DNA of 63,993 bases, filler included, from Vannella sp. (lineage: Eukaryota): the NCBI GenBank assembly GCA_023345925.1. It is 7 parts of 7 records of this genome, joined end to end, with 100 filler letters (N's around TTAATTAATTAA, not from the genome) between each part and the next. Parts side by side here need not be neighbours in the genome. Positions count along the whole stretch, not along the records: positions 10,126 to 17,456 come from JAJQQN010000534.1; 6 more parts are not named here. One strand, written 5' to 3'. The notes under the pieces are model-generated. The model was not told the DNA's origin. It searched no databases and saw only the letters and a program-made list of their open reading frames with translations. Below are positions 8,583-60,055 of the stretch, in pieces. The position numbers and the translations under genes were made by a program. How positions within the stretch are numbered: position 1 is the first letter of the stretch; each line of letters opens with the position of its first letter.

Positions 8583-8603
8583 CCTAAACTAAACCCTAAC
8601 CCT
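8583..8603. promoter_or_regulatory. Degenerate telo-box (CCTAAACTAAACCCTAACCCT) in the divergent promoter between GFAT and the NBR1-like gene
   Basis: AAACCCTAA core in the ~170-bp head-to-head intergenic spacer. Confidence 0.45.
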
Positions 8604-8713
8604 CTCTTTCGATCTATTCAGAATCGATCGAAAGAGATGAAACGAGATTTCAAGTTGACTGTTTACAAGGCTCATTCTTAAACAGTCGCGGGGTGCAAAC
8701 TGGCCGTCTGACG

Positions 8714-9636
8714 ATGGGGACTCTGATTCCTTCTGGGGCGCTGGTGTCGCTGAAGGAGAAGGAGTGGAGTGCGCCATTGTGCTACAACGATCTTAAACAG
8801 ATGTTACAAAAGGTGGAGCCTGGCGAACTTCAGCTTTACTATATCGATGATGAGAGCGATCGTGTTGCATTTAGCAGTCAGGAGGAGTACTCCAGTGCTT
8901 TCCAATGGCTGTCAAAGCCTAAGAGGATGGAGATTGAGATCGTTGTCACAAACCCCCAGCCAGAAGCAGTTGCGAAGACAATACAACCGCTTCATGAGCA
9001 GCCAACTCTTCCAACGGTCCCTAAGTCCGGCCACCTTGGTGAGTACTCCTCAGTCCTCGTTCTTAAGAGCGCATTCACTCACTGAGTGTAGTGTTTCACC
9101 TCTCAGCGCCGGTGCCAACAAAAGAAAAGATGGTCGAAGAAAAGGAAGCGCTGGCTGCTTGCTTGTTCAGTGATCTCCCTAGTGACGAACCCAAACAGCG
9201 AAGGAACCGAGTTCTGACGTAAGTAGCGGTCTCTGGTGGCGCAGATCGCTGATACGCCCTCAGATCGAAGCCGAAGATTGGCAAGAAGACGATGGCAGTG
9301 TTCGCTGGACATCTCACTGTCTCTGACATGACTCCAATACCCGCTGGCATGACCTTCAGGAAGTACTGGAGAGTAGAGAACCATGGGACGAACCGATGGC
9401 CGATAGGAAGTCGGCTGGTCTCGGTGGATACGACTGGATCAAGCCCTGACAATGGAAAGACAATCACCATTCCCACAGAGGACCTTCCCTTCCCCGGGTT
9501 CTACGCAGATGTCTGGGTGAAGCTGACAGCCCCCTTGCAACCAGGCGTATACACCAGCTACTGGCGCATGGCAGACGCTGAAGGCAACCGCTTTGGCGAG
9601 CGATTCCGTGCCAAGTACCAGTCTGTGGTAGCTTGA
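8714..9636 (+). CDS. PB1 + NBR1-type Ig/FW domain protein (minimal NBR1/ILRUN-like); 2 introns
   Basis: PB1 acidic motif LYYIDDESDRVAFSSQEEY; FW domain FRKYWRVENHGTNRWP...LTAPLQPGVYTSYWRM...GNRFG; donors gtgagt ~9039 and gtaagt ~9219. Confidence 0.8.
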
Positions 9637-9802: not shown

Positions 9803-9824
9803 TAAACCCTAAACCCTAAACCCT
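9803..9824. repeat. Interstitial (TAAACCC)3 plant-type telomeric repeat / telo-box
   Basis: taaaccctaaaccctaaaccct read directly. Confidence 0.85.
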
Positions 9825-9847
9825 GACTTTCTTGGAGGCACTTTGTG

Positions 9848-10025
9848 ATGAGCTGGGAAAGGGGGCCAAGTCGCCTGCGAGCCTCCGAGGACTTGGAATG
9901 GGTGGAACGCCGTCTGAATCTCCTCCCAGAGGATCTGAACAAGGTACTGTCCCTGATTGGGGACACCTTCCACAGAACTCACCGTTTGGCGTTGCTTTTA
10001 GTTGGTGAGGAAGTGATCTCTCCCC
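9848..10025 (+). CDS. 5' fragment of an unidentified gene, truncated by the contig end
   Basis: ATG 9848 (MSWERGPSRLRASEDLEWVERRLNLLPEDLNK), donor gtactg ~9944, acceptor cacag ~9975. Confidence 0.4.
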
Positions 10026-10125
10026 NNNNNNNNNNNNNNNNNNNNNNNNNNNNNNNNNNNNNNNNNNNNTTAATTAATTAANNNNNNNNNNNNNNNNNNN
10101 NNNNNNNNNNNNNNNNNNNNNNNNN
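10026..10125. other. Artificial contig linker (N-run, TTAATTAATTAA, N-run); identical linkers at 17457-17556, 31850-31949, 41751-41850, 51049-51148 and 59933-60032
   Basis: The same 100-nt structure, with stops in all six frames, occurs six times. Confidence 0.98.
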
Positions 10126-10153: not shown

Positions 10154-13100
10154 GCATTTACCAAATAACCGTTTGGAGGGCGCTATTCCAGAATCTATTT
10201 GCCGCCTTGTCAAGTTAGAAGAGCTGTACGTGTAACCACTTATGAGAAGAGAATCTCACTCTCCCTCAAGATATTTGGCTCATAATCGGCTTTCTGGATT
10301 CGCTCTCGACACTATTGGGGATCTCACAAGACTGGTTGAATTGTAAGCTGTTGTATCAGCTGTTTCGAATGGGTCTGACTTCCAGTAGGGATCTGTCGGA
10401 CAACCAATTGCAAGGGCGTTGCCCCGACTCTCTCAAGGATCTGAACCTGATTTACTTGTATGTAAATCTCACTGATCTGACCCATTAGCTCACCAAGTGA
10501 TAAGGAGCCTGAAGAACAATCAGTTTACCGAATTCGTCCCTGAGTAAGTCTGGCTTGGACTGTAATTGCTTTCACCCATTCACACTCTTGGCTCAGGATC
10601 ATCCCTGAAGAGCAGTTCATGCACAATGACGAGTTCCAAGAGGCTCGCGATTCCTTTTCGGAAATGGGCACTCGAATTTGCGGGAATGGCAAGTCTGACT
10701 CAGAAATAGGTCTCGAGCTGAGGCGATGCGGAGTTAAATTGAGGGAATTGGGACTCTTCAGCGATGCAAAAGATTACCTCCGCAACGCCTGTGCGCTACT
10801 CTCAGAAGTGGCACTCGAACTACAAGGAAAGTGGGAAAGAGCGGAAAAGCCTCATGTGGATGCTTGGAAGGACTACCAAATCGCCAATTTGCATCAAGTT
10901 GTTGCAAAAAGAGAAATGGCAATCGCAATGGTGAAGAGTGACGAGTTGAAGGAAGCAGAAACCCTTCTGAAAGAGTCTCTCAAGATTGTCACCAATTCAG
11001 AAGAAGAGGCAAGGCTTCACATGTACTTGGGCGTGGTCTACACCAAACTCGGAATTGTTCAAGATGCGCGAGATCAATTTGAAAAAGCACTGGAAGAAGC
11101 ATTGCTGCTGGCACCAACCCACACAGGTGCTGATGAGCCCCAGAATCAAATCTGTGGGGCAGTTTTGGACCACTACGGAGATTTCGACCGGCACATGGGA
11201 AATCACCAGGAGGCCTCCTCCAAATATGAAAAAGCCAAGAAACACTTCCACAAAGACAAGAAGCGCTACCAATTACTTCATGGAAAAGCTGCTTTTGAGT
11301 TGATTGATATTGGGAAGTATGGACTTGGGCGTGACCAATTGACTCTCTCGGTTGATCAAATCACCATTCCGTTCATCCTCCAAATGGGAAGCCGTTTTTT
11401 ACCTATCCTGCTACAAACCATAACTGGAGATCCTCAACAGAAACTCCTCAAAGAGCTCTCTAATGCTCTCACTCCCAAATCGGGGCTATCGCTTACTTTT
11501 GGATCCCTTCAAACCTATCTAATGGTTGTAGACCAACTTTTGTGTTTCCCAAAAGAGAATTTATTCATCACCGAGGCTTTCAAACAGGTCAGCAGCTTTT
11601 TCCTGCAACACGAGAACTGCCATTCTCTCTACCGCTTCTATAATCGCCAGTGGAAGAAACGGTACAATGAATCGCTTCCATCGGAGGATAATGGAGATAT
11701 GAGTGCATTTGATATCACTAAGCCTCTCATTACTGGAGATTGTAGCATTGACAGTTACGAGATAAGAAATTTTGGGATCAAGACATCTCTCGAGTTTGCC
11801 GTGAGGGAATGGGACCGCATCCAGAGACTTCTCCACCGGACTAACGGAACCACCAATCAAGTGGAACTACGGAACTTGGTGGCGGAGCTGATTGTTCTTT
11901 TGAGCTCCATCCTGGATCACAGTTTGAACAACCTTCTTTCGTCTCTGCCCGGTAAACTCCCCGATAAGGCAACGATTTACTTTCCAGTCACTAAGGAAGC
12001 CTTTGAAACCCATCTCACTTGGCTCAAGAAGAACAAAATCGACTTTGTTGATTGCAAAGATTCGTACAATCTTATGATGCTCTTGTTTAGGAAGCGTGAG
12101 TGCGGCTTGCTCGAGCAAGTGAGGCTTCTTGCAGACGATTGCAAACACATTCGGCTCGTCCCACACACCGTGACAAAGAAGTTGCACAGTCAATTTGGCC
12201 TTATTCCTGAACAAACAGTGGAGTTCACAATCGACTTCTATGACTCAAAGATGACTGTTTCGACCATCTACAAGGTCCTGGCATCCTCCCACTTGCAATC
12301 CATTGGTGAGACCAAACTGGAAGAGCTCTCTCGTCAAACAAGACTGTTCCTTCTTGGCCGCATTCAAGAGAGGTCAAATCAGATTATACCCAAATGGAAG
12401 GCTTACATGAAAAACCTCTCCAAGGACTGCATTGTGTCCCACAAGCTTCTGGAGGGCACTGTCTCTCGAGAAAAATTGATTATCCAGTTGCAGAAAGACA
12501 TTGAAAAGCATGACCAACAAGCAGAGACCTTGAGCGGCAACATACCAAGCCTTTTGGAAGGACTGGAGGCGAGAGGGATCGAAGAGGTTGCTGACTTCCT
12601 CATCAAAAGATCTAATCAGACCTCTTCAGTCAACCCAGACATCTCATTGAATCTTGCAGAGTTCATTCCCACAGCTCTGAAGGAAGTGAACCGCATTGCA
12701 AAAACGTTTGACCGTGATTCCAAAAAGATACGCAATCCTGATACCTCGCCCCAAATTCCAGGTGCTGCTCGATCCTCGGATTGTGTGAACACTCTTCGCA
12801 CTGCATTCAGAAAATCTGCGAAGGCTCTGTTGGACGGCAAGCCCTGTCAGTCCATCCAAGAATTGAAAGCTGACAACGAATCATTTAAGACTGGGGATGC
12901 TGAGGAAGACGACAGAATCACAATTTTGTTCTTGCAACATTCTCTCAAAGTGCTGCGTTTCGGCGATCGGGATTGCTTTAATCTCCGATGGGGAATCACC
13001 AAAAGTCTCTATGAGAAGTATGTGCTTCAGGGTTTCTACCTTCCTGCTGTGGACCTCTTACATGCGTGCCATTCCTTGCTTCCCAATCACATTATGGCGA

Positions 13101-13759
13101 AAAATTGGGACCGGAAATGGAGAGAATCAAGAGACGAACAACTTCAGAAGATGGATTCACGCAAGCTACATAAGGACATTTTGGAACAGTGGGTTCATGC
13201 ACGACTTCAAATCATTCGGATTCAGAGGATGGAACTGAAAGCTGCCACTGTTGCCGATTCTCGCGACATTCTTTATCGAGGTACAATTCTAGCCAATCAA
13301 GTTGCCATCAAACTTCGCCATTTGCTCGATCAAGCCATCTTTCGATTTGCTCGCGAGTGCATTAACCCTTCTTCTGAGCCCGTTAACTTCCCAAATTGCT
13401 GGGAAAAAAGTCTCAGTCTCAAAGCAAAAGCTCTCTACCCAGGGGCTGGCTTGAGTATCAAAGACTTCAAAATGGAGGGAATTCTCAATGACTTCTTAAA
13501 GAAATGCCCAGAGTGGTTCCAAAAGCTGAACCTCGTGACCAATGAGGCCAAGCATGTGCAAATTCCACTTCCTGATGCTTCAAAGATGATCTCTAAGACA
13601 TGGCCGAATCATTCCATTCTCCTGTTCCTTCACAAGAAGGGAGAGAAAAATCACGCCACTTGGGATCCGGCAGTGCCTTTCTTGCGAGAAGTTGCAGAGG
13701 AAGTTATGATTTTGCTCGAAGACTTCAGTAAAAAAGAACGGACAGACAGTTCTCCCTAA
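10154..13759 (+). CDS. 5'-truncated LRR + TPR + tandem HEPN-like protein; exons 10154-10225, 10271-10342, 10389-10457, 10505-10543, 10597-13759
   Basis: Splicing at GT-AG sites gives HLPNNRLEGAIPESICRLVKLEELYLAHNRLSGFALDTIGDLTRLVELDLSDNQLQGRCPDSLKDLNLIYLSLKNNQFTEFVPEIIPEEQF, in frame with M at 10619; TPRs (ARLHMYLGVVYTKLGIVQDARDQFEKAL); duplicated L..LD / FP / KH module. Confidence 0.8.
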
Positions 13760-17556: not shown

Positions 17557-20500
17557 TCATTGTCTCTGATGGCTCAGTCATATTCAAAGAGAACTCTTCC
17601 TTGGTAACAGCCCGCGGAACCGCGCTTGACATTCGCGGTTTACTCCGATTGACTGACAGAGTGTGCTTTGGAGTAGATGGCGTTGCGTTCATCATCTCTG
17701 GGAGAGTTTTGCTCGATTCAGACAGTTGCTTTAGCTTGAAGAAGAGTACTCTAGATGTTTCCGGAGATTTAAAGACCTCCCAGAACCACAAATTGACAGT
17801 TATGGACTCGAACATCAAGATATCGCGAGGTTCCGTCCTCTTCTCTGGTACTTCCGCCAGTTCAACAACTCTCCTTCGAAGTAACTTGACTTTGGAGTCT
17901 GGAGGGACTTTCACTGTGGCCGAAAGGACGTCTTTTGCTATCTCTGCAGGGGCAGTCACTGTCAAGGCTGGCACTGCCGCCATCACCGGCAATGCAACTA
18001 CTTCTTGGAGCAGTGCAAAGTTACTGGTAAGCTCTGGATCGGTCTCATTCCAAGACAGCACGGAAACAACCCTCACTGAAAGCGAGATTTCTGTTTCCGG
18101 CGGAAGCTTCTTGATTGGACAGTCCGCTGCGTTGGCGGGTGCAAATACGCATGTCTCTGTCAATGGAGGAAAGGTGGCTTTGTCTGGTAACTGCGCTGTA
18201 AAACTTTACGCGGGATCCCTGTTAGAGGTGATCTCGGGCTCGATGTTGGCATCCCAGAGTGCTTCCTTGAATATGGCCGACTCCCCAATGAATGTGGCTG
18301 GCAACGTTCATTTCAGCGACTCTGCCAAACTCACTTTGTCGAACTTGCCAGCCTTGGTAACTGGCGATGTTCTGTTCTCAGGCTCTGCGGCTGTAAAGTT
18401 CAACTCCAAGGTTCTCCTGACCATCAATAATGGCAGCTTCCAGGTCAAAGGAGATGCTTCTTTCACCACCCAGTCTGCGGATACCATCTCAGTGAACAGA
18501 GGGGGCTTCATAGTGAGCGACCGAGCCGCCATCACTTGGAATGGCGCCAAAGTAAGTGTGATTGAAGGGAGCATGTTGCTGGACCAAGCGTCTGTTCTTC
18601 GTGTGGACCAATCTCAAGTGACTGTGACTGGAGGAGAATTTAGCCTGAAGAACGACGTTGTTCTGAAAGCCTCTAAGAGTGAGCTGTCTGTTCTTGGAGG
18701 CTCTTTCTTGGCGAGCGAGCGGGTTCAATTGGACTTGCTCGAGACCCCTTTCACTGTTGCTGGCAAAGTCATTCTTTCTGGCACTTCTGCTAGCAGTTAT
18801 CGCCTCAAGTCTTCCCCTTTGACCGTCCAGAGAGGCCAAAGTACTTCTGGATCAGTAGAAGCCAAGGAGTCAGCCTGTCTGATTCTGGAAGACTCTCCGC
18901 TTCTTCTCAGTAATGGGCAAATCACTTTCCAAAGTAACACTTGCTTGCAATCCACTAACTCTCCTATTCGCGTCCGTTCTGGTGGAGTCCGGTTCTCGAA
19001 CAATGCCACACTTTCCTTGAATGCTCCATCGCCTTCTTTAGAGATTCAAGGAGGCGATTTGGAACTACTTGACTCCGCAAAGATGCTGACTGTTCCAGGG
19101 ACATCTCTCAATGTCTCTGGTGGAGGAATGATTGTGAGTGACTCCGTCAAACTGAATTTGGACCGCGTCCGTCTCAGCGTTGGCGGATCCGTTGGATTTT
19201 CTAAAAACAGTGGCCTCTCAGCTGTTGCATGCGCAATTGACATCGATGGAGGATTATTCAGCATTAAGGATGATACGGTTGTCAGCGCCACCAACAGTTC
19301 TATCTCCTTGACCAAAGGAACATTCTCTTCGTCGGAGCGAGTCAAGTTCGACTTGGAATCAACGCCGTTTACCGTGGAAGGCGCAGTCATCTTTGCTGGC
19401 GAGGAGTCAAGCCATTACAGCTTGAGAAACTCTCCTCTGACTGTGCAAGGGACTTCAAATTCTGGATCCATCTTGGCAAAGGAATTTGCTTGCATTGTCC
19501 TTGAATCCTCCCCTCTGACACTTAAAAATGGTCTGATTGACTTCCATGATAACTCATGTCTCAAGGCTACGGATTCTTTGCTCGAAGTAGAGGCTGGAAG
19601 CGTCCATTTCTCCAACAACGCACTTCTCCAGTTGAACGCGCCCTCTCCGTCTCTCATCATTAACGGTGGAGACCTCCAGTTCGCTGATTCAGCGCGCTTT
19701 GTGACATCGATTGGAACTGCTATCGATGTATCTCAAGGCTCTCTTCTCGTGAAGGACAAAGTTCTTCTCCACTTTGACCAAGTCACGTTGAATGTGGGCG
19801 GAAATGTGAAGTTCTCTGAAACTTCGGGACTGGCGGCTGCTTCTAGTAACGTTACAATTGGAAGCGGAATGTTCAGTATCAAGGATGATGTGGTGATTCG
19901 AACTGTTGGAAGCAACTTCCATGTTGTTGGAGGATCCTTCACAGCGAAGGACCGAGTTACCTTTGACCTCCTTGACACTCCTTTAACGGTGGAGGGTGAA
20001 GTGCTGCTTTCAGGGGAAGCTTCATCAATCTATCACCTCAAACAATCCCCCTTGGTGGTTCAAGGATCCACCGCGTCTGCTCTTGTGGAGGCGCGCGAAA
20101 GCGCTTGCATCATTCTAGAGAGCTCTCCTTTGACAGTCAGGAGCGGCTCTGTCCGCTTGAACGATAACGCATGCATCCGAGCGTCAGATTCACCCATTCA
20201 AGTCTCACTGGGAAGTATTACTTTCTCTGATTCCAGCAGCTTTGCCTTACAAGACGCCAAATCCCCACTTACCGTTGATGGTGGAGATTTGATACTTTCA
20301 GACTCAGTCCAATTCACAACCGCACCTGGAACTGTAATCGACGTTTCTTCTGGTAACTTGGTCGTCAGTGATCTGGTGCAACTGAATGCGAATCAAATTA
20401 CTCTGACAGTTGGCGGGAGTGTGAGTTTCTCTGGTGCGAGTTCCTTGAGTGCTCTGAACTCGACCGTTATTCTTGAAGGTGGCAACTTCATCTCTGCCGG

Positions 20501-23500
20501 TGAATCTCGGCTCTCTTTCACAGAAAGTGTGGTTTCTGTGCGGGGCGGAGGACTTCTTTCCACCACTGATGAAGTGAGCCTTTCCATTGTTTCCAGCTCA
20601 ATTACAGTGGATGGAGACATTCTCTTGAATGGGCGGCCCGCTGGTCCTCACGTTATTCTCGACTCAAAGCTTTCCATTAATAACGGAGGAAACCTCCTTC
20701 TTGCTGGAGACGTTAACTTCCTGGTCAATCACACACAAACTACAATCTCTGATGGCTCCTTGCGCTTAGCAGAAGACAGTCAGATGACCATTGCGGACGG
20801 CTCTTCTACTCTCCTTGATGGAACAGGAACCATTGCAGCCGGAGGGAACGCCCATTTGCTGATTACAGGATCCTCTCACTTAAACGTGGAAACAGGAGGA
20901 GCAACCGTCAATTTTGGAGACCAGAGTTTGCTCGAGGTGGTGGACCAGTCCGGATTCCACGTGACCGGAGGGAGCGTTACCTTCCAAAGTTCTGCTGAAA
21001 TCAACCTCTGGGAGGGAACAAACTTCAACGTACTAGATGGCAATTTCGTTATGGCTGGTAACTCAAGGATGACAGCCTACCCCAACACGGAAGGCACAAT
21101 TATTGGTGGAGACTTCTTCATCCAAGACCAGGCGCTTGTTGTGTTCATCCAGTCCAACATCCGGATTGTAGGGAGCTTGAACAATAACTCGACATTCCCA
21201 GTACAGTTCCTCAGTGGTACGAACATCGCTATTGACGGCGCTCCCATCCGCATGTCCGGCTCGGGGACTTTCAACATTAACACGGGGACCGATTTGACTG
21301 TCAGTAACGGAAGTATTTCGTTGTATGATCGTTCCAGCATCCAGTCCTCAAACGGCACCGTCACTGTTGCGGGAGGAAGTATTTTAACTTATGAGGATTC
21401 CTTTTTAGTCGCTCGGGATCAAGCGAATGTCCGAGTGACTGCCGGAAACATCACTTTGCGTGAAGATTCCTCTTTTTCTGTCCTTTCCGGGGCCCAAGTC
21501 ACTGTTTCAGGATCAGGACAGAACTCTCAAGGTTCCCTTTTTGCTCAAGATTCTTCCTTGCTGACAGTCAGAGACTCTGGAAGAGTCGTAGTCTCCGGCG
21601 GGAACTTTGAGCTCTCTGAGCAGAGCAAATTGGAAGCCTCTGATAATGCTCTGATTCGTGTAGTTCGTGGAAACGTGGTCGTCACTGATAACGCCAATAT
21701 GAATGTCACCCGTCGCTCTCACGTCGAAGTGCTCGAAGGCGGCAACCTGATTCTTGTGCAAAACACCCAGCTATCTCTGGATAGATCTTCAGTGCTTGTT
21801 TCAGGCTCCGGAAATGTTCTTGCTTCTGGTGAAGCTTCTGTTCAGACGGCAAATGGAGGGAGTCTCCAAGTCACTAATGGTGGTTCCATCCGCTTCCAGA
21901 ATAGCACTTCCATGTTGACTACTTCCAACTCTTTGGTCCAAGTGAGTGGAGGAAGTATTGAGTTCTCAAGTGCAGCCACTTCCGTTCTCTCAAGATCATC
22001 GCAAATGGAAGTATCTGGCGGCAACATCCAATTCAGCGGCTCTTCCACCCTGACTTCAATGGAATCCAGTGTTGTAGTCTCAAGCGGAGACCTTCGATTC
22101 AGTGGTGCTGCTTCCCTCACTGCTCTTAACTCACAGGTAGAAGTGTCTGGAGGCAACATTCGAATCACTGAAGAAGTTATTGTTACCCTTCAAGCCAGCT
22201 CTGCCACTGTGAGTAGCGGCGACTTTGAGACAGGCCTCTCATCAATAATCCATCTCTTTGGAGAGTCCTCCTTCTCAGTGACAGGCGGCAATGTGATTGT
22301 TGGTGACATCTCTGTTGTTGACTTAACAGAAGGCTCCGCCTTCGCCGTTACCAGCGGCAGCCTGAACGTTGGAGACTCTTCAAGAGTTGATATCAGCCAA
22401 ACCTCGGTCTTTTCTGTAACTGGTGGCAACGTCAACGTCGATGGAGCCTCTACTATCGATCTAATTTCCGGCTCCTTGCTGAGTGTCGATGGCGGAAACG
22501 TGAATCTCAGTGGGACTTCGCTTTTGAGTCTCACAGAGGCATCCGCCTTTACTGTGACAGGAGGGAATGTTGCTTTGGGAGAGACTTCGAATCTTGACTT
22601 AAACCAAAACTCACTTTTGACTGTGGCTGGCGGTGACGTCGCTTTGTTTGGAGCCAGTGTATTGGCAGCAGCACAGTCTACTTTGACAGTTACTCAAGGA
22701 AACTTGCTCTTGAATAACACAGCTCGTGCCATTTTGGCAGATAGCCAGCTTTCCGTTTTTGGTGGAGATCTCCTTTTTGATGGAGAATCGACTTTGCTTG
22801 GGTCCTCTTCTCGCATCAATGTTACCTGTGGCCGTGTTATATACGATGGCCAATCTCTGTTTAGCGTTGAAGCGACTGATATTGTTGTGGACAGCTCGAA
22901 TTGCGTTGGCATTCGCCTTCCTTCTCCCATCTTCCAAGATGATTTGATTGTGGTCGGAGGAGAATCCTTCTTCTTGGCCAGTCAGAGCACTCACATTAAG
23001 GTCATTAGCGGGAACTTTGCTTTTGTTGAAGCCAGTCGCGGAGAAGTCAGAGATTCAGGAATCACAATAACTGGCGGTAATCTCAATTTGGGTGGAGCCA
23101 GTTCTCACCAATTCATCCAATCCACGGTTTCCCTTCTATCTGGGTCTCTCACTGTCAGTGACACCAGTAACGCTCTCTTCACTGAAAACGTTGCTATTGT
23201 AATTGATGGCGGGGATCTGATTCTTCGGGACGAGGCCACTCTCTCTGTTGAGGACTCGAGTGTTTCTATTGTTAGTGGAAGTGCTCGCTTCATTAATGGC
23301 GAGGCGAATTGGCTGCGTTCCTCCCTCACGATCGACAGTTTTGGCAACATTGAATTCAATGATCTCAACGCTGCACTCTTCAAGGACTCTAAAATTAGCC
23401 TTGCAGGATCTGGCCAAATCCAATTGAGTGGCTCAGCCATCGTGAACGTCCAAACCTCCATTATTTCTGTACTTGGAGGCACTTTCACGACTGAAGGTGA

Positions 23501-25976
23501 CGCCAAGATGGACGTTCTTAGCTCTACGTACGCCATTAATGGAGGTGACACCACCTACAAAGGCTCTTCAGTAGTCAATATCCGCGATTCCCTCTTCTTT
23601 GTCACAGCTGGAAACGTTATTGTCGAGGGAAGCAGCTTCGTTACCTTGAGCCAAAACTCGATCTATAGTGTCACTGGAGGTGATGTGAATTCTGCTGGTC
23701 TCTCCAGGTTGACTTTGACTGAAGGATCGTGCTTCAATCTCGAGGAGGGCTCTGTAAGTTATGGTGGTATCAGTACCATATCACTTTCTTCCTCTTGCTG
23801 GAACATTTCAGGAGGAAACGCTGTCCTTAGTAATAACGCACGCTACCTTCTTACTGATAAGAGTTCCTTGCACATCACCCGGGGCTCATTGTTTAGTCAG
23901 AATAGCGCTTCGCTATTTGCTGATAACTCAACCATCCTCATTGACGGCGGAAGCTTGACTGGACTAGATCAAAGTGTCCTTCGCTTCCAAAACCAAGCTG
24001 AGGTTGAGGTCAAGAGTGGAAACATCATCTTCACTGGTGAAGTATTGGCAACTGTAGACGCTTCCAGCTTCTCAGTGACTGGAGGATACGTCGAATTTGC
24101 CGGAAACGCAACTCTCACATGGAGCCAGTCCGACCTCCACATTCAGGAAGGAGACATGGTCGTCAAGGGTTCCTCTCTTGTGAACTTTGACGAGTCCTCT
24201 ATTCGAATCACTGGAGGCAGTCTTCGTTTCCTCGACCAAACAGCCGTCCAAGTAGCCGAAAGCAATGTGAGAGTGACAAACGGAAACATCAATTTCCAAG
24301 GCAAGTCTGAAGTGACATTCACTGGTGGGCGAACGGACATTCTGAAAGGGTACATGCAGTTTACAGAGCAAGCTTCTGCAGTCTTCCGCGGTTCTCCTGT
24401 TTACATTGCTGGTCAATTAGGTTGTCTTGGGAGTTCCAGTGCCCGCTTTGAGGCATCTGATGTGACGATTGACTCGGGAGATCTTTTTGTTAAAGATCAG
24501 TCCGCCCTTCACTTCCAGCAAGCTCAACTTCGCATTCACGGGGGCTCATTCCATTCCGAAGAGTCCGCTATCGTGTCTTTTGAAGACGCTCAGATCCTCC
24601 TCAAGCAAGGAGACATCTTCATCAACGACCAAGGGTCCTTTAGCATGCTGCGCTCTCGATTGGTAGTAGAAGGAGGCAACTTTGTGGCCTTCAATCCCTC
24701 TTCTCTCCGAAAGACTCTCACATTTACCGAATCAGACATCAGTGTCCTGAAAGGTCCATCTAGCGGTAATAGTGGCAACATGAAGATCCAAGAGAGCGTG
24801 GAAGTCGTCATGCGTTCCACTAACGCTATGATTGACGGAGATCTGATTTTGATTGGGTCTGCCCGTCTTGCTGTCCTCGAAGAGTCATCCTTTGTCATTG
24901 GAGAAGGCGTTGTCAAAATGGATGCCTTAGCGACTATTGAAGTGGAAGCAAATTCTGTGTTCCTGAATAAGGGCCATCTGACTGCTCCAGGCAGTATCCG
25001 AGCCCCTGCTGGCTCTTCACTGACAAACTCCGGAGTGATGGAAGCTGATCATGACTTGAACGCGAACTGCTTCTCTGACCTTTTGGACAGCCAAGCCCTC
25101 GAGAATATCGGATCTTTCCGTCTGGGCTCAGCCGGAAGAACCCGAGCGCTTCTTGCCTGTGTCGATTCGTTAGAGCACAGCGGGCTCTTGCAATTGTCGA
25201 ACGCAAATGTCACTTTCAATCGCGTTAGGACGACCTCCACTTCCACCACCACTTTGGGGCAATCCACCATTATCATGCCCCTCGGAGAGTCCTTTGGGAG
25301 CGAGGGTAGTCTGGGAGGGACTGGCTCTATCCTTGGAGGGTTCGTGAACAGCAATTCCGCAGTTCTGATGGCTCATGGCGAGGAAGGACCAACCCGTCTT
25401 CACGTCCAAGGCAACTTTAGCAACAGCGGAACCATGTTCTTCACTGTAAACTCTCGCAATAGCTCAGATCCCAACGCTATCAGCCAAGTATCTGCCGGAA
25501 ATGACGTTTCCCTCATTGGAGGGCGCGCGTGCGTCTGTTTCAACCCTGACGTGGTCTTCAAGAAGGGAGATAGCTTCGATCTAGTAACCTCCCAAACCAG
25601 TCTATTTGGCCGGTTCGATCAAGTCGAGTTCGACTGTCTGGAATGTCCTTTCCGATCAGCAAAGTCCGTCGCCTCTTACGATCGTTCTTGCAGGCCCGGG
25701 GCAAGCTACGGAGGAGTCAACTTTGCCATCATTCTCGGGGCATGTGGAAGTGGAAGTTACCTGGAGCGTATCTCCCCACCGTGGTACGTGGTCTTCCCCA
25801 CAGCCATTGGGATCATCTGCTTGCTCATCATCGTCCTTGGTGGCGGGCTCTTCCTCGACGAGCAAGTGCGCAAGAGAAGGTTCAATTCACAAATGCGACG
25901 TAAACGAAGCATCCTTCTCGAAAAGATCAAGAGAGAGGCATCTGATGCCGTTGCGGTGTCCGACAGAATGGCATAA
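17557..25976 (+). CDS. Giant (>2,790 aa, 5'-truncated) intronless parallel beta-helix surface protein with autotransporter-passenger-like C-terminal region, single TM helix and basic cytoplasmic tail
   Basis: Uninterrupted 8.4-kb ORF of ~21-25-aa Gly/Ser-rich repeats (xxVxGGxxxx); LGGTGSILGGFVN...LHVQGNF...GDSFDLV...GRF; TM WYVVFPTAIGIICLLIIVLGGGLFL followed by RKRR. Confidence 0.8.
18600..20450 (+). repeat. Three ~205-aa super-repeats within the beta-helix protein
   Basis: FSLKNDVV / FSIKDDTV / FSIKDDVV start at 18639, 19257 and 19872 (spacing 618 and 615 nt); each is followed by ...TP(F/L)TVxG...SPLxVQ...(S/F)AC. Confidence 0.85.
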
Positions 25977-29673: not shown

Positions 29674-31849
29674 ATGTTGCGGGGTGCTGCAGCAAGAGTG
29701 GCGTCTCGGCAAGTTCCCTTGATCGCTGTGCGGTGTTGTGGGTCATTTGAGCCGTTGGATCGCTTCTCCTTGCCGGAACGGCAGTGGGACGTGACGAGGC
29801 TTCGCCATGTTGTCACTGGAGCTGAGGTTCTTCATGTCAAGTGTCCTGACCCAGAGAATACCTTTGGTGTGATCTTTCGAACGCACCCGGATAGTACAGG
29901 AGTCGCCCATATCCTCGAACACACCACTTTATGTGGGTCCGAGCGCTTCCCCGTCCGTGATCCTTTTTTCAACATGCTCAAGCGCTCGCTTAACACTTAC
30001 ATGAATGCTTGGACTGGTAAGTCATCACCAGGGATCCAATGAAGCTAACGAGAACTGGCAGGATCGGACTGGACGGCTTATCCTTTCTCCACGCAGAACC
30101 CGAAGGACTTCCGCAACCTCCTTGAGGTCTATCTCGATGCCACCTTCTTCCCTCGCCTCAACAAGCTTGACTTCTTGCAAGAAGGCCACCGCCTCGAGCT
30201 GGAAGATCCTGAGAAGCCAGCAACGTCTCCTGTGCTTCTCAAGGGCGTTGTGTACAACGAGATGAAAGGGGCGAACAGCAGTCCAGACCGCCAGATCCAA
30301 CAGCGGTTGCATCATGAGCTCTTCCCTCCTAACGTGACCTATCACTACGACTCTGGCGGGGACCCCGCTTGTATTCCTTCCCTGACGTACGATGCCCTCA
30401 GGTCTTTCCAGAAAGCCAACTATCACCCAAGCAACGCTCGTTTCTACATCTACGGGGACATGCCCCTGCAGCCCACACTGGATTACATCGAGGAGGCGGT
30501 GCTCAATCGATTCCAGCCCACTTCCCCGACCCCTCCTGTCCCTAAGATTGAGAGAGCAACCTCCTCAAGACTTGTTGAGGCCACCTACGCTCCCCTTCCA
30601 GGAGTTCCTCTTGAGTCAGCCAACAGTGAGTGATCACACTCCCTTTCCCACTGACTCTCTCGTTGCTCTTCTCATTTACTGACCCATATCTGCAGCTGCT
30701 TTGGTATCATATCTTACCAATGATGTCTCTGACGTTCACGAGAGCTTCGCTTTGGAGATTCTTTCGTCGCTTCTCCTGAAAGGCTCTTCGTCTCCGTTTT
30801 ACCAAGCTCGCATGGCCTCCGTGCCTGGCGGACTTGGTCAGGACTATTCCGTGGGAACAGGATACGATGATAGTACTACGGAGGCCACATTCGGGTTTGG
30901 GCTTCAGGGTCTCACTGAAGAGCAGATTCCAAAGACTTTTGAGTTGATCCAAGCAACTTTAGAAGCAGCAGCTCGTGAAGGCTTCCCACCCTCGCGGATC
31001 GAAGCAGTTCTACATTCAGTAGAGCTCGGGAAGCGTGAGACTCCCAGCAACATGGGACTTAGTCTCTTCGGGATGTTAACTTCCGTTTGGTCGCAAAACG
31101 TGGACCTCCACAAGTTCATGAACCTCGACGCTCTCGTCACTTCTTTCCGCCAATCTCTGGTAGAAGATCCTCAATTCCTGCAGAAGAAGGTTTCCAAGTA
31201 CTTTTTGGAGAACCAGGTGTGCTGGATTACCCTTCTCTCTCCTCATTGTGTTCTAACTCCAATCTAGCACTCAGTCAGGTTGATCTTCCGCCCTGATCCT
31301 GACTTCTCTGTGAAGCGAGACCAAGAGGAAGCGGTAATGCTCGACAAAATGGAAAAAGCCCTGGGCCCAGAAGATCGAGAACGGATTGCACAAGAGCAGA
31401 TCGCCTTGGAGGAACATCAAGCCCAAGAACAAGATCCCGACCTTCTTCCTCGGATGACTTTAGCTGATGTCAGCCCCAATGCCCCTCCTCCAGCACCTCT
31501 TCTGTTTCGCCCAGCACGTGCAGGAATGGTACCTGTCCAATACTCTCCGCAGCCAACCTCTGAATTGGCCTATGTCCGAGGGTTTGCAGGATTGGACTCT
31601 CTACCAAAGGAACTCCAAAGTTATCTTCCAATCTTTGCAAGTACTTTTGGCGCGATGGGAACCTCCCAATACTCCTATGGTGAGCTCTCGCATCGAATTC
31701 AGAACTTTACTGGAGGGTTATCCTCGTCTTGGGTGGTTCACAACCATTTTTCAAAGGAGGACGCACCCTCCAGTACAGTTCTGAATTCGATGCGAGAGCT
31801 CACCATAGGAGTATTGGGAGGTTCCCATCGCGCCAAAAGTACTTGCAAA
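29674..31849 (+). CDS. PITRM1: Mitochondrial presequence protease (M16C), 3'-truncated
   Basis: Inverted zincin HILEHT, RDPFFNMLKRSLNTYMNAWT, KGVVYNEMKG, YHPSNA; Arg-rich presequence MLRGAAARVASR. Confidence 0.93.
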
Positions 31850-33649: not shown

Positions 33650-36537
33650 TCGTTCGGACAAATAAAGCTCTGAATGATCGTAGCTTGACTGGGATCTCTA
33701 GCCCATCCTGCATCGTTGACGGATCCGACGTACCCATCTGGGAGGAAGATGAACACGCGTTGGTTGAAACGCGCTTGGACAAGTAATAATAGTAAAATGG
33801 CAGAGTCCAAGGTTGCCTGTGCCTATCTATCAGCGACAACCAATTATTCTACATAATGGAGCTTGGCTCTGCCAAGGCCAGTTGGATTACCTTGCGACAG
33901 CGGCTAGGCCAAAAAGCGATTTATAACAGATATGCTTTGCGCCTACAGCTGTACACGGAGCGTATGGGATCTGAATCGGTTACAGTCTTTATGTCGAGTA
34001 CACGAGAGCTTGTTGAGCCTACGCAAGGCTGGTCACAAGATGCGATTCAGTTCGGTCATCGCGATGCGGAGAGATGATTCATTCGGATATCTGTGGTCCA
34101 ATTACTCCCCAATCTATGGGTGGAAGTTGCTATGTTCTATCATTTATTGATGACTTCTCTCGATATTCTTACGCCATTCTGCTCCAACACAAATCAAAAA
34201 TTGTGCGCAATGATTCTGAAGTCACCACGGTGTTCGAGTCATGAAACCTGTCAGTGACAATGGAGGAGAATTCAAAAGTCGACGTTTTGAGTCCTTTTGT
34301 GGCGAGGTTGGAATATTAACTCAGGTATATACTGTCCCAGACACGCCTCAACTTAATGGAATTGCCGAGCGCTTTAATCAGACCTTGTTTACAAAAGTGA
34401 GAGCTATGATGCTCACTGCTACCTTCCAACTTGTGGGGAGTGTCACAGCTACCAACCACTTGCGATGCATTCTCGAGGAATTTGGTACCAACTCAGAAAT
34501 ATCTGCCAAAAGCTGAAAAGCTGACTCACACAGGAGTGAACGAAGAAATGACTGGTTATCATCTAGTTGACTTAAGACCCAGAAAGTCTTTGTGAGACGT
34601 GGTGTGAAGTTCTTTGAGAACTCGTTCAGTTTCGAGACTACTGCTCAGAAAGACAAGTTCTTCCGAAACATGCCCAAAATCAATCTCGAAGACTGTGATT
34701 ACCATCTAGGCGATGGCCATCAAGTAATGATCATTTTGATCAGAAATTGGTTCCTGATGTCCAAGTAGATAACCTCATGGAGGTTGAAAATACTGTTGAC
34801 AATCTACTTGATTTTGAAGACCTTGTTCTTCAAGAAACCCAGAGAAGGTCATCCCGAAACGCTCCCGCAGTGGACGGAGTAACAGTAGAAGGATGAATTC
34901 AGGACGAGCCTCTATGGCTGATTTTCTGGATGAAGCTGACCCTGAGACTTACGCTCAAGAACTCGCCCCATTGTGCAGAATGGTTGGTTGCGATGGATCT
35001 TGAAATCCAGTCACTGGCTGAAACAAATTGCCGAACTACCCCTGGATCTAAGGCGATGAGAGGAAAATGGGCTTCAAAACTAAGCTCAAATCTGACGGTA
35101 CTGTTGAACGGCGAAAAGCTAGGCTGGTTGCACTTGGGTATCAACAAGTACAAGGAATTGATTTCCATGACACTTTTGCTCCCGTCGTCCGTTTTGACAC
35201 TACTCTTGCAATCTTATCAATTTCCCACTCACGGAAATATCAAGTCCATCAAATGGATGTTGTCACTGTCCTTTATGGCGACCTTGAGGAGGAGATTTAC
35301 ATGAGAGTCCCTGAAGATGTCTCCGCTGAGCACGGAAAAATGTGGCGTTGGCGAAAATCACTTTATGGTCTGCGACAGAGTCCCCGTCAGTGGAACTTGA
35401 AATTGGTGTCATCGCTTTCAGCTTTGGCTTTGAAGCCTCCAAGTATGATCCTTGCCTCTATTTGAAGAAGGATGTTGAGCTGTGTATGTTGATTGATGAT
35501 TTGTAAATCTGTGGTACTGATATTGCGCTAATCTCGGAGGTGAAGAAGGATCTCTCTGAGCAATTTAAGTTGAAAGATCTTGGCATTGTTTCGTTCTTCC
35601 TGGGTGTGTCGATCTCCCACAACAAAGACGAAATGTTCCTCCATCAGGAGAAGTACGCAAGGAGAGTTTTGGTGACTTATGATTTGTCTCCTGAGAATTG
35701 TTGGACTTGCAGTATTCCTATGGATCCTGGTATTTACAAGGATTTGTTCAATTCTGATTCACCGTTAATGGACGCGACTGTTTACCGACGTGCCATTGGA
35801 CAACTAATGCATTTAGCTGTGCGAACGCGCCAAATCAGGCGGTCTCCAAGTTGTCTCGGTTCTTGTCGGAACCCAGAGAGATACACTGGAGGCACTGGTG
35901 AGGAGTCTCAGATCGGTTATGCCGATGCTGATTGGGCTGGTCGCCCGAAAACCAGGAGGTCGACATCAGGATTTATTGTGACACTCGCTGGCGCACCAAT
36001 TGATTGGAAGTCTTCGCTGCAGGGCCTGACTGCTCTTTCAACAATGCAGGCGGAATAAGTTGCTTGTGCCTGCATTGTTGAAAGGATATTCTCTGGTTGA
36101 GAGGACTCCTGGGGGAGATCGGAGTTTTACTCGAGGGGCCGACTATTATCTACGAAGATAATCAGTCATGCATCGCCTTCTCAGAATCCCCAGCTGGCAC
36201 TGTGAAATTGGTTTATGTTCAGAGTTCTATTCAAAGAGCTGACATGTTGACAAAGCCTCTGCCAAGACAAGCTTTTGAGCGTTGCTTGGATCTAACCTTC
36301 CATCGGGTTTTAGGGACAGGAGGAGTGATGAAAGTATCCCAACACCCGTTTCCAGGAAGAGGAAGCTCGAAGCTTCCAAGGACACTAATTGATTGGGTGA
36401 TAAATAATCATCCGATCAATGAGAGGGTTCCTGCAAAGGAGCAATTCCTGCCCTTTTATCAACACTCACTATTTCACTCATCTTCCTTCCTGAAAGTCTC
36501 CAACAGTTTATCACCTTTGTCTTTGTCTGTCATAACA
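33650..36537 (+). mobile_element. Degenerate Ty1/copia LTR retrotransposon (gag, integrase, RT, RNase H, PPT, probable 3' LTR)
   Basis: gag RYALRLQLY; integrase SDICGP, FIDDFSR, SDNGGEF, PQLNGIAER; RT KARLVALG, HQMDV, KSLYGLRQSPRQW; RNase H YADADWAG, IYEDNQ, QRADMLTKPL; purine tract GGGACAGGAGGAG followed by TG at 36326; many frameshifts and stops. Confidence 0.92.
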
Positions 36538-38343: not shown

Positions 38344-40333
38344 GGAACGAGTGTTGTGGGTCTGCGATTGCCCTGGGTCTGCTACGAATTTTCCGACTTC
38401 GTGGTTGTGTTTCAATTTTGCAATTATGTTGTGATAAACACTCTTTATGGCGGACTCGCGGCTGGCAAGACCTCTGCTACCGGCGGAAAAGCGCGTCCTG
38501 ATCTGCCAAGCGGCCGATGCGTGCGCTGCTTACCGTGCGGAGAACGAGAAGAGCACCAACGCTTATTGGTTCAAGAACGTGATGCCGATTGCGTTCCATG
38601 GCGCCTCTCTCTCCGCTTTACAGAAGGAGCTGGCAGCGCGCAACAAGGGCCGCCGTCTTGCCCACGAGGTGGAGTGCCTACACTTGCGCCGGAGGAGTAC
38701 GAGAAGCTCGACAAGCAACTGGATGACCATCTGCGACTGATGGGACGCTTTCCCGCAAGATCATCATCGCTGAAGTGCAGGCGGTGATCCTGTCTTCCAA
38801 TCGCACCGCTCAGCGGAAGGCGACCGCCTTTGACGCGTTGCAGGGATCAGGTGGGTCCGAGACTTCACTGCCACCCGCGAAGTGTTGCGGTGCCACCTCT
38901 CCCTTCCCCGGTGGCCTTGGGTAGAACCAGTAATTGGACTGTCACCCCGTTCATCAATGCAGCTGGGCAGCTGATCCTAACCACACTGATTGTCCGGGGC
39001 GACAGTGTTGCTAATGAGTCACTGGCAGACATGGTGGCCTTCAGCGCGCACCTGGACTCTGACATCGGCATCTCAGCCACCAAGAAGGGATCTACCGACG
39101 ACGAGGTGTTCTACAACACCATCGCTGGTCCGGGAGGGCTGGTGGAATGCCTTGAGCGCCGCATGCTTTCACTTAAGTGTCCGGAGATGTTAATATTGGA
39201 TGGTCATGCCTCCCGTTTGACAGACAAGCTGTCCAAGTACTTGGCGAAGCATTCGCTGTATACCATTATTATGCCATCCCACACCTCGATTGCCCACCAA
39301 GCCTGCGACAACGGAGCCATGAAACTACTGGAGGCCAGTTTCAGCCGGTTGTACTCATGGCACGCTCGACTGGAGGGAACAATTAATAACCGGGAACGTG
39401 TGAAATTTGTTTTTTAGCGGTGGCAGAATTGGCTAACAATACCGAAAACTTGGTCAGTTGTTGGAAGCGGGTTGGTTGGAGCAACGGCCGCATCAGCCCT
39501 GGATCGATCAGCTTGAATACTTACGCAGTTGGGACGCGCTACCGTGATGCCTCGTTGCCCGATGTGAATCAAGCGCTGTTGCAGGCCCTCTTCTCTCTGG
39601 AGAACCTCATTCGAGAGCCATCCGCACCAAATCCTGTCCCCGTGGTGAGGGGGGCGGATGGAAGAGCGCAAGCAGTTGCAGCCGCACAAGCGCTAGTATC
39701 GACACATGCCGCACTCGGCTCCCCCACGAGCGTCATCACTTTGTCCAAGACCCGGGATGCCGCAGCGACGATGAGCTCGTTTTGGCTGACCGCGAGGATG
39801 AACGGTGCCGGAAACATGACAGCAGTTACCCAGCTCCTGGCCAACACTGAACTGCAGGCAGATAATGTGTTCGGGGAGGCGGAGGAGGTGCTGCGTGGGG
39901 CAGCAGGACGAATTTCAACTGCAAACGGCTTTACGCTCTTTGTCAGTGCCTCTAGAGTGCTCTTGCAAGAGCGCCGTGCAGCCAATCCTCAACGACAACA
40001 GTTGGCAGTCCAAAACTGCTGTTAAGAGCGAGAAGGCGTTGTTAGAGTATCCGGTTCGGAAGGTTTTGACTGACCACGGCTACTGTACCCAAGAGAAGAT
40101 GACCAGCAAGCAAATGGACCACTTTGCGACTTGCAATGACTTGGAGTGGAAGACCACATGCGGATCCTTTTCAACGGGAACGATCCTGTCGAGCCCACCA
40201 TCTATCTGAGAAATCCACTATTAATAAATGTATGGTGCAATCCCTTCATTATGCTTCAAAAGTTGGAACACAAACACAGGTCGGAAAATTCGTAGCAGAC
40301 CCAGGGCAATCGCAGACCCAGGACAACCGACCC
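38344..40333 (+). mobile_element. Full-length pogo-type (Tc1/mariner superfamily, DDE_1) DNA transposon with 54-bp TIRs, TA target duplication and a disrupted transposase
   Basis: 38357-38397 is the exact reverse complement of 40280-40320; outer 13 bp imperfect; TA at 38342-43 and 40334-35; transposase motifs TVTPFINAAG, LILDGHASR, PSHTSIAHQACD; frameshifts present. Confidence 0.92.
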
Positions 40334-59932: not shown

Positions 59933-60055
59933 NNNNNNNNNNNNNNNNNNNNNNNNNNNNNNNNNNNNNNNNNNNNTTAATTAATTAANNNNNNNNNNNN
60001 NNNNNNNNNNNNNNNNNNNNNNNNNNNNNNNNGTGGACCATTTCCTTCCGACACC

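Follow-up and report, generated by a model that had tools for sequence, protein, structure and literature searches.

Two tandem HEPN-like modules behind tetratricopeptide and predicted leucine-rich repeats in a Vannella gene: a candidate one-chain sensor and ribonuclease

The DNA analysed here, called the window below, is a stretch of 63,993 nucleotides (nt) from Vannella sp. (GCA_023345925.1), and the subject of this report is a gene at 10154–13759 of its plus strand, whose predicted product joins leucine-rich repeats (LRRs), tetratricopeptide repeats (TPRs) and two tandem HEPN-like modules. The gene and its tandem duplication are real, and the unannotated family to which the modules belong has members among standalone bacterial proteins, in Dot/Icm-bearing bacteria and in protists. 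With a likelihood a little short of even, the two modules could make one composite ribonuclease (RNase) site in a single chain, switched on by a ligand bound to the repeats.

Module 1 occupies 11789–12709, with helix 1 starting at 11789, SILDH at 11906–11920, IYFP at 11975–11986, DDCKH at 12134–12148 and a predicted helix 4 in its distal part (12635–12709), which comes after a long insert (about 160 residues) and stops near 12709. In module 2 (13175–13726) helix 1 starts at 13175, followed by RHLLDQ (13316–13333), VNFP (13382–13393), NEAKH (13541–13555) and a predicted helix 4 (13667–13726). The helical spacer between the modules (12860–13110) appears TPR-like by alignment to relatives and resembles the stretch preceding module 1. 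A preliminary description of the locus had located both motif sets correctly and had drawn the modules too short, at about 11790–12160 and 13180–13565. The internal duplication claimed there is not significant in pairwise alignment, where shuffled sequences did as well in 715 of 2000 and 103 of 1000 trials, but it stands once homologues are brought in. The module-1 hidden Markov model (HMM) built without the window protein, run on 469 window frames, matches both modules (E 1.5e-6 and 3.4e-8), and profile-profile comparison, with cores trimmed around the motifs and module 1 of P0009 excluded, gives an HH probability of 99.6% (E 1e-23), or 99.7% with the window rows removed. The proposed conservation of the Lys-His pair was borne out in 8/8 first and 11/11 second modules. 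Judged by these profiles, the two modules are homologous.

The phmmer search with 11600–13756 against 1.84 billion representatives returned the window protein's own allele and 10 relatives (P0002–P0011; E 4e-23 to 7e-4), a patchy occurrence of 11 proteins in the 50% representative library. Seven of the ten relatives are long (1121–2003 aa), each with Lys-His in both modules, while P0002, P0003 and P0007 hold module 2 only and are apparently partial. TPR matches are present in six of the ten, and the relatives align colinearly with the window protein from module 1 through the helical spacer to module 2; on this alignment, the TPR-module-spacer-module unit is conserved in other organisms. P0011 is suggested to be eukaryotic because it has a MYND finger; P0009 is fused to a glutamate dehydrogenase fragment and is possibly a chimeric assembly. 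No tandem relatives were found in the viral-contig scans, and tblastn of module 1 and P0007 in phages and plasmids gave no match. Word-indexed protein searches found nothing beyond the window protein itself, PDB sequence searches gave no match, and the modules have none in Pfam, PADLOC or NCBIfam at E<=10. The candidate from a metagenome scan, a single phage protein, was judged spurious.

The wider family was reached by DNA patterns. The first of them covered the LD and FP motifs and hit 29 viral-contig loci, 9 of them in frame (two near-identical); Lys-His lay downstream in 9/9, though absent from the pattern. Later patterns, which included Lys-His, led to 137 HMM matches in 5415 frames, reduced to 117 after removal of partial and duplicate rows. 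These are standalone proteins of about 200–330 aa from many bacterial phyla, with R75, D79, P102, K153 and H154 invariant; about 270 stretches match one strict family pattern among species-representative genomes, and in Pfam and PADLOC the 117 members have no family match beyond single stray ones. Because the search patterns were derived from the motifs themselves, non-circular tests were made. A module-2 HMM from which bacterial and window rows were left out selected 20 of the 5415 frames, every one a family member; the loci were enriched for the family (137/5415). With all 13 pattern columns masked, module 2 still reaches a score of 31.5, above the decoy maximum of 19.3; module 1 fails to exceed the decoys. 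Also shared are QP[FY] and the last helix, which no pattern contained. As the direct HMMER match of the bacterial family to the window open reading frame (ORF) is weak (E 0.18), the link passes via the relatives; by these profile comparisons the modules are distantly related to the standalone bacterial family.

The model of bacterial member L018 is confident (predicted local distance difference test, pLDDT, 96) and shows four helices in an up-down fold, arranged as two alpha-hairpins, with an insert separating helices 2 and 3; HEPN domains make up nine of its ten best structural matches and many lower ones among 48,161 chains. The invariant H154 closes helix 3 (140–154), the invariant D79 lies inside helix 2 (61–90), and both window modules retain this His and the helix-2 Asp. 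Carried over from the L018 model by profile homology, a HEPN fold is probable for the window modules, in line with the prokaryotic HEPN likeness noticed in the preliminary description. Feature similarity in the Atlas, taken as a lead only, places module 1 near unnamed bacterial proteins of 226–241 aa (0.91) and module 2 near a cluster named RiboL-PSP-HEPN (0.92), and gives both modules the identical two nearest Pfam-bearing clusters. The single-sequence AlphaFold model of 11744–13756 had a pLDDT of 35 and was set aside as support; Foldseek gave nothing on PDB at E<=0.001 and two viral proteins without name on BFVD, and tblastn of L018 in phages and plasmids gave one weak Gordonia phage match. 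In a scan of Pfam, PADLOC and NCBIfam profiles, the library of which did not include the Pfam 38 family DUF8310, the modules, the 117 members and the 10 relatives were unmatched by the named HEPN families (RiboL-PSP-HEPN, Cthe_2314, DZIP3, LA2681 and Abi types; we take PF18738 to be the DZIP3/hRUL138-like HEPN). A non-HEPN origin, in which the modules would be some other family of four-helix bundles and act as enzymes or binders of a different kind, is very improbable in view of the structural matches, of the Atlas names, which point to HEPN clusters, and of the His, the helix-2 Asp and the helix 2–3 insert, all placed as in HEPN.

HEPN dimers form a composite RNase site, as described in PMC13043305. 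In the mechanism proposed here the LRR and TPR repeats would keep the two modules inactive until a foreign or damage ligand binds; modules 1 and 2 would then pair like a HEPN dimer into one RNase site, in which Lys-His and the helix-2 Arg/Asp may stand in for the Rx4-6H motif, and cleavage of tRNA/rRNA or pathogen RNA would halt the infected cell. Fold, duplication and conservation are supported by the comparisons above, while pairing, catalysis, gating and the immune role are our inference.

Several observations weigh against this mechanism. The Rx4-6H arginine, said in the preliminary description to be off its usual spacing, is indeed absent 5–7 positions before the His of LADDCKH (module 1) and VTNEAKH (module 2) and is missing in the whole family, so RNase activity is only inferred. 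Since section 6 of PMC3710099 lists HEPN families without the Arg of the motif, its loss lowers the case for a canonical HEPN RNase, not for a HEPN fold. Module 1 of the window protein is degenerate: Ser replaces the helix-2 Arg, Leu stands for the Trp found in 7/7 relatives, QP[FY] is absent, and its branch is long (4.03 against a median of 1.03). LRRs are matched in 0/10 relatives. Moreover, because close relatives occur in Dot/Icm bacteria, the Vannella gene may represent a captured effector and not a native receptor. What endures of the earlier interpretation is the two homologous modules, their HEPN-like fold and Lys-His, the TPRs and the predicted LRR exons; the defence or mobile genes around the bacterial relatives also agree with it.

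The decay of module 1 lends itself to another explanation, in which module 2 alone is catalytic, module 1 has decayed and now serves as a scaffold or in RNA binding or inhibition, and clustering of the repeats brings the module 2s of two chains together into the site. The bacterial relative L397:6960-10136, with one full module and a trace of a second, would fit it, as would the single-module standalone proteins, which are the common form; yet Asp, FP, Lys-His and the downstream Arg are retained in window module 1, and 7/7 long relatives keep Lys-His in both modules, and the explanation is considered unlikely.

The LRR-TPR gene begins at contig end 10126 (JAJQQN010000534.1), its 5' end lying beyond. 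Predicted LRR exon 1 (10154–10225, 72 nt) shows the L..N.L.G.IP register, and more exons are probably located past the contig end; exons 2 (10271–10342, 72 nt) and 3 (10389–10457, 69 nt) follow, then exon 4 (10505–10543, 39 nt), a half repeat, and predicted intron 4 (10544–10596, 53 nt, GTAAGT..CAG), which links the LRRs to the last exon (10597–13759, 3163 nt, 1053 open codons). As the preliminary description had held, the ORF can be read as the last exon of a longer gene, five exons joining in frame via four GT..AG introns into a predicted stop-free product of 1138 residues; the introns measure 45, 46, 47 and 53 nt, and each is predicted to cut the LRR at the identical repeat position. The stop-free chain is not unique, 35 chains being possible from 31 candidate introns, and the present one was chosen because only the LRR spacing of 23–24 residues, not the open frame, singles it out. 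Pfam scans of the exons taken singly matched LRR_1 weakly in exon 3 (E 0.036) and nothing in exons 1 and 2. The TPRs recognised earlier are confirmed by Pfam matches at ORF residues 121–185 (10904–11098), the remainder of the TPR region (10700–11340) being drawn from alignment to TPR-bearing relatives. No transmembrane segment is present in the last exon (maximum Kyte-Doolittle 19-mer 1.37).

If intron 4 is retained, the reading ends in Pro-Glu-stop (stop codon 10545–10547), and the next in-frame ATG, 71 nt on at 10619, is the start of the database protein P0001. These facts, together with the lack of LRRs in every relative, would suit a pair of neighbouring genes, one a small LRR gene ending at 10547, the other a TPR-HEPN-HEPN gene from 10619. 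Such an arrangement is improbable: 10544–10596 has consensus donor and acceptor and the same phase as the other three introns, its size is like theirs and like the candidate introns of the neighbouring GFAT gene (44–53 nt), the intergenic distance would be just 71 nt, and the LRR would break off mid-repeat. From the sequence features, the predicted splicing of the LRR exons to the last exon is very probably correct. At 11011–13510 several coding sites of the window are different in the contigs of runs X1–X3 and in P0001, at low depth; the variants are mostly amino-acid changing, several within the TPR region, and give a weak hint of polymorphism.

The surroundings of the standalone genes were scanned, without a control set, at 38 of 45 bacterial loci and in 148 of 179 neighbouring ORFs. 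Mobile-element Pfam families occur at 15/38 loci (IS1595 transposase at 8), defence or toxin families at 9/38 and either kind at 19/38; the neighbours at loci L271–L350 include IS1595 transposases and type I restriction, TIR, Abi and PIN genes, and at L306 two family genes sit in a type I restriction operon, between hsdS and hsdR. The standalone bacterial family is a candidate anti-phage or toxin family.

TPR-plus-module relatives were found by the module-2 HMM in 3/1,583 sampled bacterial genomes, all three among the 390 of one class (0/401, 0/401 and 0/391 in three other groups). These genomes are small (1.9–2.7 Mb). IcmK/DotH and IcmL/DotI are above cut-off in 3/3 of them and in 0/14 controls, a comparison limited to these genomes; the DotA search matched in none of the genomes searched and carries no weight. 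Dot/Icm is a mark of Legionellales/Coxiellales-type intracellular bacteria. The genomes bearing it are probably those of protist-infecting bacteria, and we suppose that their TPR-module proteins may be injected into the host. One such gene carries one full module (G1070), one is cut by a contig start (G1013), and a TPR-module-module gene (G1082, L395:6753-11290) is spread over several overlapping frames as a pseudogene or through assembly errors. A Legionella effector with one HEPN domain and other architecture is described in PMC11696984.

From these data the Vannella gene might be seen as captured, effector-like, from a Dot/Icm intracellular bacterium, with RNA processing or binding or another non-immune task and possibly no nuclease activity. 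The Dot/Icm genes and the missing arginine speak for it, the bacterial TPR-module genes sit amid housekeeping genes and not in defence islands, and eukaryotes repeatedly recruited HEPNs for housekeeping according to PMC3710099. This reading is rather unlikely, as Lys, His and Asp are invariant across standalone and tandem forms, which suggests catalysis, and the added one-repeat-per-exon LRRs, fast divergence and patchy occurrence fit a conflict gene. In the tree, which is unrooted, holds 24 of the 117 bacterial rows and leaves the direction of transfer unreadable, the split between tandem modules and standalone family is supported at 98/100, module 2s cluster together (93/95) and window module 2 is nearest to P0002 and P0003 (99/92). 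The history could have been that a standalone bacterial HEPN duplicated behind TPRs, that the tandem gene passed between Dot/Icm-bearing bacteria and protists in either direction, and that the window lineage gained LRRs, one repeat per exon.

Among known systems, Cas13 has two HEPN units in one chain. The table of PMC3710099 gives Csx1 (MJ1666) as a HEPN dyad with two HEPN domains per chain. Like these, the window protein has both units on a single polypeptide, where they could build one site; unlike them, it has TPR/LRR repeats in place of a guide-RNA lobe, CARF domain or CRISPR link, and no Cas profile matched this intron-bearing, eukaryotic gene lying among housekeeping genes. The HEPN RNases of abortive infection and toxin-antitoxin systems, AbiV, HepS, HepT/SO_3166 and LsoA, share with the modules the predicted four-helix up-down fold, the helix 2–3 insert, the His ending helix 3 and the acid in helix 2; the standalone relatives often stand beside transposases, restriction and Abi genes. 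The modules differ from them in having N-x-[DSA]-K-H without the Rx4-6H Arg and helices 3 and 4 set apart by a beta or helical insert, and in being tandem, fused to repeats and unmatched by Pfam or PADLOC HEPN profiles; the AbiV motif RNHKSKH likewise ends in S-K-H (10.1101/2024.05.05.592566). Fusions to TPR or LRR in eukaryotes and bacteria are reported for the DZIP3/hRUL138-like, LA2681 and C6orf70 HEPN families (PMC3710099), which keep Rx4-6H, are described as single units and have Pfam models that miss the window protein. In RNase L/Ire1, as in the proposed mechanism, a repeat or sensor domain gates a HEPN-derived RNase (KEN) needing two units; however, the window protein lacks a kinase, and KEN is circularly permuted with an inter-chain dimer. 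Brown-algal ROCO and NB-ARC-TPR candidate receptors have exon-encoded repeats (PMC3341825), resembling the window gene in one LRR per exon with lengths in multiples of three, suited to shuffling; the window gene has no ROC-COR or NB-ARC switch and its effector is HEPN-like. As to NLR/STAND features, no NACHT/NB-ARC match was found in the last exon, the 5' end lying past contig end 10126. No description of the family was found in literature outside subscription journals and supplements, and the alignments in Additional file 1 of PMC3710099 could contain it.

The window content is eukaryotic, with TMEM131, ELP1, USP7, mitofilin, oxidosqualene cyclase and RhoGAP genes and short introns, and the read sets matching it are biofilm metagenomes. 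Its contigs are strung together by N-TTAATTAATTAA-N linkers, and their order is no proof of adjacency: at 59933 an exportin C-terminus faces a different gene. The contig end at 9804–10025 carries AAACCCTA repeats, ATG 9848 and a short open frame, possibly the LRR gene's first exon; ATG 9848 was left out of the gene because none of the X1–X3 contigs bridges the gap 10026–10125. Runs X1–X3 hold a second copy of 9836–9985 with 16–19 differences and other upstream sequence, i.e. a small gene family or a second strain. Further upstream, the previous contig has a small gene with PB1 and an NBR1-like Ig domain (8600–9636). Elsewhere there are an open frame without introns (17557–25976), about 2800 codons long, that encodes a G8 domain, a contig end formed by an inverted repeat of part of an M16 peptidase gene (31400–31849), probably an assembly or amplification artefact, and fragments of a Copia-type reverse transcriptase (35507–36055) and a DDE_1 transposase (38788–39414).

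In summary, and independently of the window gene, a widespread bacterial HEPN-fold family with a non-canonical motif emerges that has no Pfam, PADLOC or NCBIfam model. More speculatively, and with doubt prevailing, an unnamed Lys-His HEPN lineage may comprise a standalone bacterial conflict protein and a TPR-gated tandem RNase of Dot/Icm bacteria and protists, which here would be an LRR receptor wired to an RNase as an immune switch of the Cas13 or RNase L type that has no ATPase or kinase. To our knowledge, very little is known of the effectors of protist immunity. The one-chain sensor plus RNase, if true, would be a directly testable candidate for such an effector, and finding the same architecture in Dot/Icm bacteria suggests that intracellular bacteria and their hosts have exchanged a weapon.
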